The position numbers were made by a program. From a virus (taxonomy: Duplodnaviria; Heunggongvirae; Uroviricota; Caudoviricetes): a stretch of DNA of 25,739 nt. The DNA is taken from IMG/VR virus record IMGVR_UViG_2526164664_000020; one strand, written 5' to 3'. The first letter of the stretch is position 1. Each line of letters begins with the position of its first letter. Below, piece by piece: positions 3,001 to 6,000 of this stretch.

Positions 3001-6000
3001 CGCAAAATGCCTTCCGTCGAGGCTGCCACTTTCAGCGCAGTGGCAGAAAAAGCAGAAGTGTATTTTTCAAACATCGCGCGTTTATCGAGCAATATACGCA
3101 TAAACAGCGCCGCGCCGACGGTATTGGTGACCATCATTGGTGCAGCAATATTACTCACCAGACGCACCGCATCTTCATAAGGTCGGGCGATCGCAAGGAT
3201 GATCAGCATTTGCACCATTTCAGCGACGAACGTGACGGCACCGGCGGTAATGGGGTTAAAGACTTTATCAGTGCGCCCGCGACGGATCAGGATGCTGTGT
3301 ACCAGGCCGCCGAGCAATCCTTCAACGATGGTTGAGATCATGCAACTTAGCGCGGTCATGCCCCCCATCGAATATCGATGTAAGCCGCCGGTCAGACCAA
3401 CCAGCCCACCGACGACCGGACCGCCGAGTAAGCCGCCCATTACCGCGCCTATCGCACGGGTATTGGCAATAGAATCGTCAATGTGCAACCCAAACCAGGT
3501 GCCCATGATGCAGAAGATGGAAAAGACGATGTAGCAGAGAAATTTATGCGGCAGACGAACCGTGACCTGCATTAACGGTATGAATAATGGCGTTTTACTC
3601 ATTAACCACGCAATGACTAAAAAAACGCACATCTGCTGAAGCAGCAGCAACACCAGATTAAAATCGTACATACCCGCAAACCACACTTCCCTTTAAAACG
3701 CGTAACATACATTGCCTGCGTTTAACTTTCTTTGAACTCTTGCAGAAAAATGAGAATTCGTGAGTACGATCACTCAAAATCGCCTGGCAAAAATAAAATC
3801 ACCCTATAGATGCACAAAAAACGGGCAAAACTACCTGGTTCGCAAAACTGCGTCTAAAGTTAAACCGGGACCTCGCGAGCAAGGGTGAGACGATGGCGCT
3901 TTACACAATTGGTGAAGTGGCGTTGCTTTGTGATATTAACCCTGTCACGTTACGCGCGTGACGCAACATTTTTAAAAATCAACGAAGATCGTCCAGGAGC
4001 GCCGATTTTCAAGGGTTGGACAGATAATTCGTTTTCGATGTCGACGAACTTCGACGGATTTCGCCTATAAAAAGTGTCCCATACATGCCCCATTGATGCC
4101 CCATAGACAATATCAGCAATTGACACTGGTTATCTATACAACTAAAAATAACACCTGTACATAACCACAGTTACAGGAGGGTGTTATGCGTGTTGAGAGC
4201 TGTATCGCTAAAGAAAAAATCAGCAAAATGCCAAAAGGTTCTGTTCCTGCCCTGCAACAGGAAATGCTGCGCCGTATCAGGAAACGATATGACAATGCAG
4301 AAATCATCATCAAATCTGCCAGTAATAATGGACTCACTATTTTAAGAGCCACAGATAAAGAGTCCGCACACGAATTTGTACAGGAAACACTTCAGGAAGC
4401 CAGGGAAACAGCGGACGACTGGTTTATTCACTGACTAAAATCCCGTCCACATGCCGGGAATTTCCTATGTCCGAAGAAAATGGTGTGGTTAACTAAGCAA
4501 AAGTGTCCCTTTATCGGTATAGCAACTCATTTTGTTAACATACGGTTGCAAAATTGATGACAAGTGTTTATTTTAGCCACAAGAAATGTATGCAAACCAG
4601 AATTGGGAAATGCATTTATAAAATAAGGAATAGCAGATATGTTTGCAGCAAAGCCCGAATTAAGTCAAAGATGTATTTCTGGACTCCTCACAACTGGGCC
4701 AAATGATGAAAACGTAAATAATAAACCGTCAAGTGATATGCCGAACAGAATCAAACTAGTTGTAAGCGATTCACAAATCGGTATATATACAACTGACAGT
4801 AATACTCTGAAGGATGGATTGTGTAGCCAAGCCCACATAGGAACTCAACCTTATCGGCCAGGTGCTGACTCGCCGATAACTGTGAGATCATTCCTACAAA
4901 TCACACTTTCCAACAATAATTACAAATCATTAGAGCATCTGCAAACACGAGCAGAGAATTATCTGAGGTATCGCAAAGCAGAAGAGAATATTCTGCGTTC
5001 GACCGTTGAGGGGCTAACCAATCCAGAATCTCCTGTATTCAAACAAACAGCATGGATGGGGCATCTGGAGCGTGGCCTTTGGAAAACGGAAACACGCTGG
5101 GATGGAAACGACCGCGAGCAGCTAGGCAAAGAGGCTCTTGGCTCAGAGGAGCCAAAACCTGGTTCACCATTTTACGGTAGTCGTGGACTAAAATTATCCG
5201 ACAGTGCGCATTCTGCCTTCTCAATGATGCTGTGCGGTTCTGAAGGTCCATTCACAAAAGAACAAGCACTCTCTGGTTTCGAGCTTGCTCAAACTGGCCA
5301 AGTGCTGGCTGGAAGGCTAAAGATTCAGGAGCGAGTTAAATTCCGCGCAGACAACCGCATTGATGCTCAGCGTAACGGTACACACTCAACCCGCACACCA
5401 ACAGGCATGGATCTTTCTCAAGATATCGGCACAATTATGCGTGATAAAGCTGGGCTACCGGTCATGAGCGGAACATCCGGTTCCTCCTCTGATGCCACTC
5501 TTGCAACACGTTACGCTGCCGAGCATTTTGGTAAGACATGGGCCGCTCCAGGCTTAAGCCAAGCAGAAGGATGCAAAGCTATCTCGGATCTGTCACATCA
5601 CTATTTTCGTGCAGAAGGCTCCAGTCCACCACAATCAATGGCAACGGGAATAAATAAGGTTCGTTATGATGCAGGAATGGAAGAGAAATATGTAAATACA
5701 CTGGATATATTTACACATAGCTACCCAGAAATTTATGCTGGGGTTGCATTGACGATTGCTGGGGCTGGCGGTAATGATGAGCAGGCAATGTATAATGTTA
5801 CGCAAGAAGCCGCTCGTATTCTGCACGAAGCTGAAACTAAAGATTGAACATTCTCAATAAAGAGCTGCGCCAGGCAGCACATATTCAGCATTGCAGTAAG
5901 ATATGCATGCCCAGCCCCCTGTAAACCTATAAATATTTCAAATCATATTGATTATCTTATAGCCATATTTTTTATGACACCCTGTTTCAGTGAACATGAA

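Follow-up and report, generated by a model that had tools for sequence, protein, structure and literature searches.

DinI-like proteins of bacteria and prophages

DinI is known both as a chromosomal protein of Escherichia coli K-12 (b1061; structures 1GHH and 7YWA) and as the product of genes carried by prophages. In the cryo-electron microscopy structure of DinI on the RecA filament, a pocket made of L13, L21, W71, W77 and F78 takes F203 of RecA, and the acidic residues E24, E69 and D76 face a basic patch of RecA; LexA, UmuD and the CI repressor of lambda share the same elements of the RecA groove, and the W71A substitution weakens the filament stabilisation exerted by E. coli DinI (PMC9926225). 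Here we describe a prophage relative of this protein, an open reading frame (ORF) of 82 amino acids (aa) in the viral record IMGVR_UViG_2526164664_000020 (Caudoviricetes). The whole stretch of DNA analysed, 25,739 nucleotides (nt) long, is called 'the window' below. A sequence-only reading, made without database searches, had taken this ORF for a lysogenic-conversion moron, expressed in the lysogen and belonging to no recognised family. We conclude that it encodes an unambiguous DinI-family protein, a prophage-borne paralogue, and we put at about 85% the probability that the gene is under LexA control, off in the resting lysogen and on after DNA damage.

The window protein has the same length and fold as chromosomal DinI of K-12, with 40% identity. 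Both end in an acidic C-terminal helix finishing with ADDWF, and both genes have a LexA box just 5' of the ribosome-binding site (RBS). The K-12 gene, however, lies between bssS and pyrC, whereas the window gene is borne by a prophage and has R73 in place of W71. Among prophages, the dinI homologues of Gifsy-1, -2 and -3 have a LexA box between promoter and RBS, as in the window. Mitomycin C treatment leads to accumulation of the Gifsy-2 DinI homologue, whose LexA-box region is required for damage-dependent induction (PMC3121763); upon nalidixic acid treatment, the Gifsy-1, -2 and -3 homologues are up 23-, 14- and 4.6-fold, respectively (PMC8072944). Gifsy-2 DinI is 40% identical to the window protein. 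The Gifsy genes follow replication genes and are themselves followed by an antirepressor gene and irsA, whereas the window gene stands at the att end, without both. In phage 186, Tum is a LexA-controlled antirepressor whose second half is DinI-like (PMC3121763), hence another SOS-controlled phage protein with a DinI module, but the window protein consists of the DinI half only and has no antirepressor half.

The gene, its family and its SOS box are already known from public phage records and from RefSeq. In the Stx1 phage BP-4795, the gene is annotated dinI (ORF85; 99.4% nt identity over promoter and coding sequence); it is the same gene as that of WP_001261972.1 (O26:H11 and O145:H28), at the same prophage end at mlrA (also named yehV), with an espV-like gene next to it. 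The RefSeq name for the gene identical to that of the window is 'DinI-like family protein' (WP_001261972.1). In the VT1-Sakai (Sp15) record, the homologue H0001 is called 'DNA-damage-inducible protein I' and is accompanied by a promoter and by 'LexA protein / putative SOS box' features. Its integration site, att core and promoter architecture are those of the window, and the SOS box stands at the same offset. The 90 bp upstream of H0001 are 93% identical to the window, whereas the protein is only 60% identical; unlike the window gene, H0001 retains both the Trp at the RecA contact and the ACAG of its distal LexA box, and it is followed by a different gene.

The encoded protein and its fold

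The 82-aa product matches Pfam family PF06183 (DinI-like family) over profile positions 1-63 of 63 (E = 1.8e-15, 57.4 bits for a cut-off of 24.2). It also matches phrog_189, 'RecA filament binding protein DinI' (E = 4.3e-24), a profile of 151 positions of which it covers 71-149 only, that is, the DinI half. A phmmer search against PDB sequences returned E. coli DinI (1GHH and 7YWA, E = 4.6e-10), residues 1-81 being aligned to 1-79. All 120 database relatives listed carry PF06183, and every one that was named by its source is called DinI or DinI-like.

An AlphaFold2 model computed from a 28-sequence alignment of database homologues (predicted local distance difference test, pLDDT, of 80.3) has the b-a-b-b-a topology of DinI, with strands at 2-8, 39-45 and 49-52, and helices at 19-34 and 58-81. 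Compared with the PDB by Foldseek, it matched 7YWA_A, DinI on the RecA filament (template modelling, TM, scores of 0.77/0.81, root-mean-square deviation of 2.1 A), and 1GHH, the nuclear magnetic resonance structure of DinI (TM 0.77/0.78); no other PDB entry was matched at E <= 0.001. A single-sequence AlphaFold2 model, all-helical and with a pLDDT of 64.5, was discarded in favour of the alignment-based one. The structure prediction that had been proposed as a check leads to the DinI fold, and together with the profile matches and the existing annotations it overturns the statement that no family could be recognised. The earlier description of the protein as basic and acidic was accurate, and can be made more precise by residue counts: there are 11 K/R and 5 D/E in the N-terminal half, which is basic, and 3 K/R and 8 D/E in the acidic C-terminal half.

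Two predicted LexA operators in the promoter

The -35, -10 and Shine-Dalgarno signals reported 5' of the ORF were all located (Table 1). The -10 may alternatively be read as TAAAAA at 4143-4148, with a 17-nt spacer. A scan of positions 3700-4900 gave three promoter-like sites, among which the TTGACA/AAAAAT pair was the best, with 10 of 12 matches. As 3.1 such sites are expected from shuffled sequences, the motifs alone are weak evidence; the promoter signals are credible because they are conserved between alleles. Indeed, the 90 bp 5' of the ATG are 93 to 100% identical among the five alleles compared, against 70 to 84% for their coding DNA. Scanning 3700-7400 against Rfam at E <= 1 revealed no RNA family.

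LexA-like sites were scored with a heterology index (HI; the lower the HI, the closer to a LexA site). Its matrix was built from 22 known LexA sites of E. coli, the chromosomal dinI site being excluded, and its absolute values are approximate, a point to be counted among those weighed against LexA control below. Training sites ranged from 1.05 to 9.08, and 51,440 window positions were scored. The best of them all, with an HI of 8.24, which is within the training range, was the 20-mer of the proximal box. Its core, CTGT-N8-ACAG, is found a single time in the window; since 0.31 matches are expected by chance window-wide, it is the placement of this motif that counts. A second, degenerate box lies 29 bp upstream, and the two bracket the -10. 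These operators had gone unremarked in the sequence-only reading.

In eight further prophage alleles of E. coli, both boxes stand at the same distances from the ATG (-33 and -61/-62), even where protein identity is only about 58 to 62%. In the mEp460, UPEC 98234 and RIVM alleles both boxes are near consensus (HI 3.0-5.2), the distal one reading CTGT-N8-ACAG (HI 4.6-5.2); in VT1-Sakai the distal position reads CTGG-N8-ACAG. One LexA box each was found for the Gifsy-2 and Klebsiella-phage homologues and for K-12 dinI, where a single box scores below HI 12.6, whereas the window gene has two. The dinI-like promoter therefore carries two predicted LexA operators, which would make the gene a member of the SOS regulon.

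Taken together with the damage-induced Gifsy homologues, the LexA boxes bracketing the -10 predict a repressed state in the undamaged lysogen. LexA would sit on the proximal box, over the likely transcription start, and would occupy more weakly the distal box, over the -35 and the spacer, so that a strong promoter would be kept off. Upon DNA damage, RecA filaments would provoke LexA self-cleavage and the dinI-like promoter would fire. By homology, the DinI-like protein would then bind the groove of the RecA filament and stabilise the filament; at high dose, it would fill the groove also used by UmuD and by lambdoid CI repressors. Occupancy of the groove would in this way tune the cleavage that depends on RecA and, with it, how prophage induction proceeds. 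For the window allele, what we infer from these comparisons is the binding of LexA, expression upon DNA damage, binding of the protein to RecA and any influence on induction.

Table 1. Features of the dinI-like locus and its surroundings in the window
Feature	Position	Strand	Remarks
att core, 20 bp	3941-3960	+	mlrA(yehV)'/prophage junction; identical to the 'attachment site' annotated in VT1-Sakai (L002 1342-1361)
Conserved attP-proximal arm upstream of the promoter	3961-4119	+	nearly identical among phages at different integration sites
-35 hexamer TTGACA	4120-4125	+	invariant across all aligned E. coli prophage alleles; annotated promoter in VT1-Sakai and mEp460
Distal LexA-like box, predicted, CACTGGTTATCTATACAACT	4124-4143	+	overlaps -35 and spacer; degenerate CTGG-N8-ACAA; HI 9.6
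-10 hexamer AAAAAT	4144-4149	+	18-nt spacer, from promoter scan; kept in all prophage alleles
Proximal LexA (SOS) box, predicted, ACCTGTACATAACCACAGTT	4153-4172	+	core CTGT-N8-ACAG at 4155-4170, between -10 and RBS
Shine-Dalgarno AGGAGG	4175-4180	+	5 nt 5' of the ATG, read from the sequence
dinI-like coding sequence, 82 aa	4186-4434	+	ATG start, stop at 4434; WP_001261972.1 in a 100% identical RefSeq stretch
Codon AGG, R73	4402-4404	+	position of the DinI RecA-contact W71
espV ORF, 402 aa	4639-5847	+	'secretion protein EspV' in some RefSeq genomes; BP-4795 homologue ORF84 is a 'putative avirulence protein'
TccP/EspF(U)-like protein, 231 aa	6349-7044	+	four 47-aa proline-rich EspF repeats, PF04806 E = 7.9e-110

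Distribution and selection

Homologues were found at the DNA level in 1828 of 5426 complete E. coli genomes, at up to 8 places per genome, and at the protein level in 133 phage records, with Escherichia, Klebsiella, Salmonella, Yersinia, Citrobacter and others as hosts. The 801-bp junction containing the gene recurs at 100% identity in genomes of E. coli O26:H11 and others; in O145:H28, its identity is no less than 99.5%.

The dinI module is common to phages whose integration sites include mlrA, yecE/yecD and prfC. From one phage to another, the homology extends from the att core over the promoter and the coding sequence, and ends at the dinI stop codon. The dinI gene is thus part of a conserved attP-proximal backbone, and the variable effector slot is situated between dinI and the tail-fibre genes. 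Compared with seven alleles (69 to 84% nt identity), the ratio of non-synonymous to synonymous substitution rates (dN/dS) was 0.15 to 0.25 at dS 0.5 to 1.7, and every allele was intact. The substitution pattern among related prophages, the test by which the ORF was to stand or fall, shows at the level of these allele sequences that the gene is under purifying selection.

In strain 2013C-3492, whose prophage is also at mlrA, dinI (L008 2587-2835) is a mosaic allele: its promoter and first 29 codons or so are those of the window, without any difference, and its 3' half is VT1-Sakai-like. This allele argues for recombination inside dinI.

Weighing the alternatives

Several observations weigh against the reading of the gene as a LexA-controlled prophage DinI, besides the approximate scale of the HI. 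The window boxes score HI 8.2 and 9.6 and are weaker than those of other alleles (HI 3-5), and ACAA stands in the distal one in place of ACAG. R73 replaces the equivalent of W71, so that RecA binding by the window allele may be reduced. The score against the NCBIfam equivalog of chromosomal DinI, NF007893, is 58.1 bits for a cut-off of 111; this shortfall and the 40% identity to K-12 DinI indicate a prophage paralogue rather than an orthologue. A literature search for expression data on E. coli prophage dinI alleles found nothing; among the candidate sources, an EDL933 ciprofloxacin study was put aside as it reports chromosomal dinI alone, and so was a radioresistance preprint in which the dinI mentioned is the chromosomal gene. 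Finally, in the only deletion tests found, non-polar deletion of the Gifsy-1 or Gifsy-3 dinI homologue had no significant effect on induction (PMC3121763), which makes any physiological role of prophage DinI tentative.

Some of these points would also fit a weakened or drifting passenger allele, with a W-to-R change in the RecA pocket and degraded operators, an explanation that we regard as rather unlikely. At the position of R73, W is found in 115 of 120 homologues and R in only 4, and it is at the equivalent residue that W71A impairs E. coli DinI. The LexA boxes are weaker than those of the other alleles, the changes separating the window from BP-4795 dinI are 2 non-synonymous and 0 synonymous, and the Gifsy deletions are without induction phenotype. 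However, 7 of the 8 DinI contact positions are kept or conservative in the window protein (M15, L23, E26, E71, D78, W79 and F80), and dN/dS is about 0.2 family-wide. Moreover, 65 complete genomes carry the ORF with its promoter and RBS, intact and at 99% identity or more, and relaxed selection cannot be deduced from as few as two substitutions. Taken together, R73, the weaker boxes and the BP-4795 changes allow for a weakened allele, but they do not suffice to make it the preferred reading.

There is little probability left for a moron in the strict sense, that is, a gene constitutively expressed in the resting lysogen and conferring a new host trait as a regulator, an anti-phage factor or an effector accessory. 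The consensus -35, the strong RBS, a transcription unit of its own antiparallel to the late genes and the position at the prophage edge beside effector cargo are what one would expect of such a gene, and the weakened LexA boxes of the window allele could permit leaky expression. In addition, one preprint reports that over-expression of DinI enhanced Zorya II defence against T3 (PMC13192584). Expression in the undamaged lysogen is, however, hard to reconcile with two positionally conserved LexA-type boxes bracketing the -10, and with the damage induction of Gifsy homologues that have a LexA box just upstream (PMC3121763, PMC8072944). The gene is backbone and not variable cargo, variability starting after its stop codon, and it has its own promoter but no terminator-like hairpin, so that it does not qualify as an autonomous unit. 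As for an anti-phage factor, a PADLOC-DB search with the 82-aa protein gave no defence family at E <= 0.01. What stands of the accessory-gene proposal is a well-signalled, separately transcribed small accessory gene; that it would be variable cargo or an orphan family does not stand. Overall, the initial observation is confirmed, and its interpretation is supported in part.

That the gene would open a Gifsy-type dinI-antirepressor-irsA operon, with the locus acting as a prophage induction switch, has next to no probability here: the arrangement of LexA box plus dinI is common to Gifsy-1, -2 and -3, and the VT1-Sakai annotators proposed a single promoter for H0001 and the next ORF, but tblastn with the products of Gifsy-2 STM1020.1n (the gftA candidate) and STM1020 (irsA) found no homologue anywhere in the window (best E 0.7-1.8), homology between phages stops at the dinI stop codon with espV following in the window, and the protein spans no more than the DinI half of the PHROG profile, which is Tum-like; this also disposes of a Tum-type fusion of antirepressor and DinI.

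The cargo region downstream of dinI

The genes that come after dinI differ from phage to phage. In the window they are espV and a tccP-like gene, in BP-4795 the espV-like ORF84, nleA4795 and IS629, in 2013C-3492 nleG7, in Stx2_EH2201 nleC, and in VT1-Sakai a small ORF (H0002). BP-4795 and the window, whose DinI proteins are separated by 2 aa differences, thus diverge in cargo, with nleA4795 and IS629 in the former and the tccP-like gene in the latter. The espV product has a full-length match to phrog_26984 and no match in Pfam or NCBIfam. The TccP-like protein scores under the cut-off for EspF itself. In strain FWSEC0001, an insertion sequence (IS) element of the IS66 family is found in place of the tccP-like part of the locus.

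Between the dinI stop codon (4434) and the espV start (4639), neither a terminator-like hairpin nor a consensus-like sigma-70 site was detected, and RNA folding of 4425-4500 with a terminator search revealed no convincing terminator after dinI (z = +1.3). As the cargo is co-oriented with dinI, SOS-driven read-through is possible. It is nevertheless unlikely, in our estimate, that the LexA-controlled dinI promoter reads into espV, and perhaps into the tccP-like gene, or that, independently, the W-to-R change gives an altered RecA interaction. Read-through, if true, would tie the expression of the effectors to DNA damage and to the induction of the prophage.

Further downstream, the site ACCTGTATAAATAACCGGTA at 7084-7103 (minus strand) matches the LexA operator of K-12 chromosomal dinI at 19 of 20 positions. 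Its HI of 8.65 is the second best in the window, and it is flanked by the inverted repeat CTGACAG/CTGTCAG. It is part of a piece of about 70 bp (7055-7121) that matches phage RCS47 beside an IS-family transposase gene; this piece may be a relic or a mobile mini-element, without an obvious gene to regulate. The conserved phage backbone restarts at about 7125. A GC-rich hairpin, CCGGAGCCGGACTCCGG, at 7128-7150, preceded by A-runs and followed by T-runs, resembles a bidirectional terminator that would separate the cargo slot from the tail-fibre genes converging on it. The tail-fibre protein (7441-8760, minus strand) has a long acidic Ala/Ser/Glu-rich region, then collagen-like Gly-X-Y repeats. 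After it come an Ail/Lom-family gene (8819-9406) and an ORF of 1157 aa (9487-12960), and all of these converge on the dinI and cargo region.

The attachment-site junction

Ahead of the prophage, the window carries btsR and btsS, as well as the first 22 codons of mlrA. Base for base, the mlrA(yehV)' fragment and the att core match the annotated VT1-Sakai junction. From 3961 onwards the DNA is prophage-specific, and it is at the equivalent base that the genome record of BP-4795 terminates. The dinI-like gene is the first gene inside the prophage, on the strand opposite to the tail genes, which bears out the att-proximal position at mlrA that had been assigned to it. In mEp460, an integrase gene lies directly upstream of dinI, in the same orientation.

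Within the attP-proximal arm, just 5' of the -35, are ATGCCCCAT(T/A)G direct repeats at 4086-4107 (and 4075-4085), which may be candidate arm sites for the integrase or an accessory protein. BP-4795 has two additional ATGCCCCATTG repeat copies upstream as compared with the window.

At the other end of the host DNA, positions 1-321 hold the 3' end of an IS66-family transposase gene, which abuts a 5'-truncated yehR (405-713). The yehR gene is interrupted by this IS66-family element, and the O26:H11 strain FWSEC0001 is annotated likewise.

Implications for prophage biology

The locus does not belong in a list of orphan morons. The real question is the purpose of the DinI copies borne by prophages, which are present in about one-third of complete E. 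coli genomes. Prophage DinI could modulate RecA-dependent cleavage of repressors, and hence the induction of Shiga-toxin phages.

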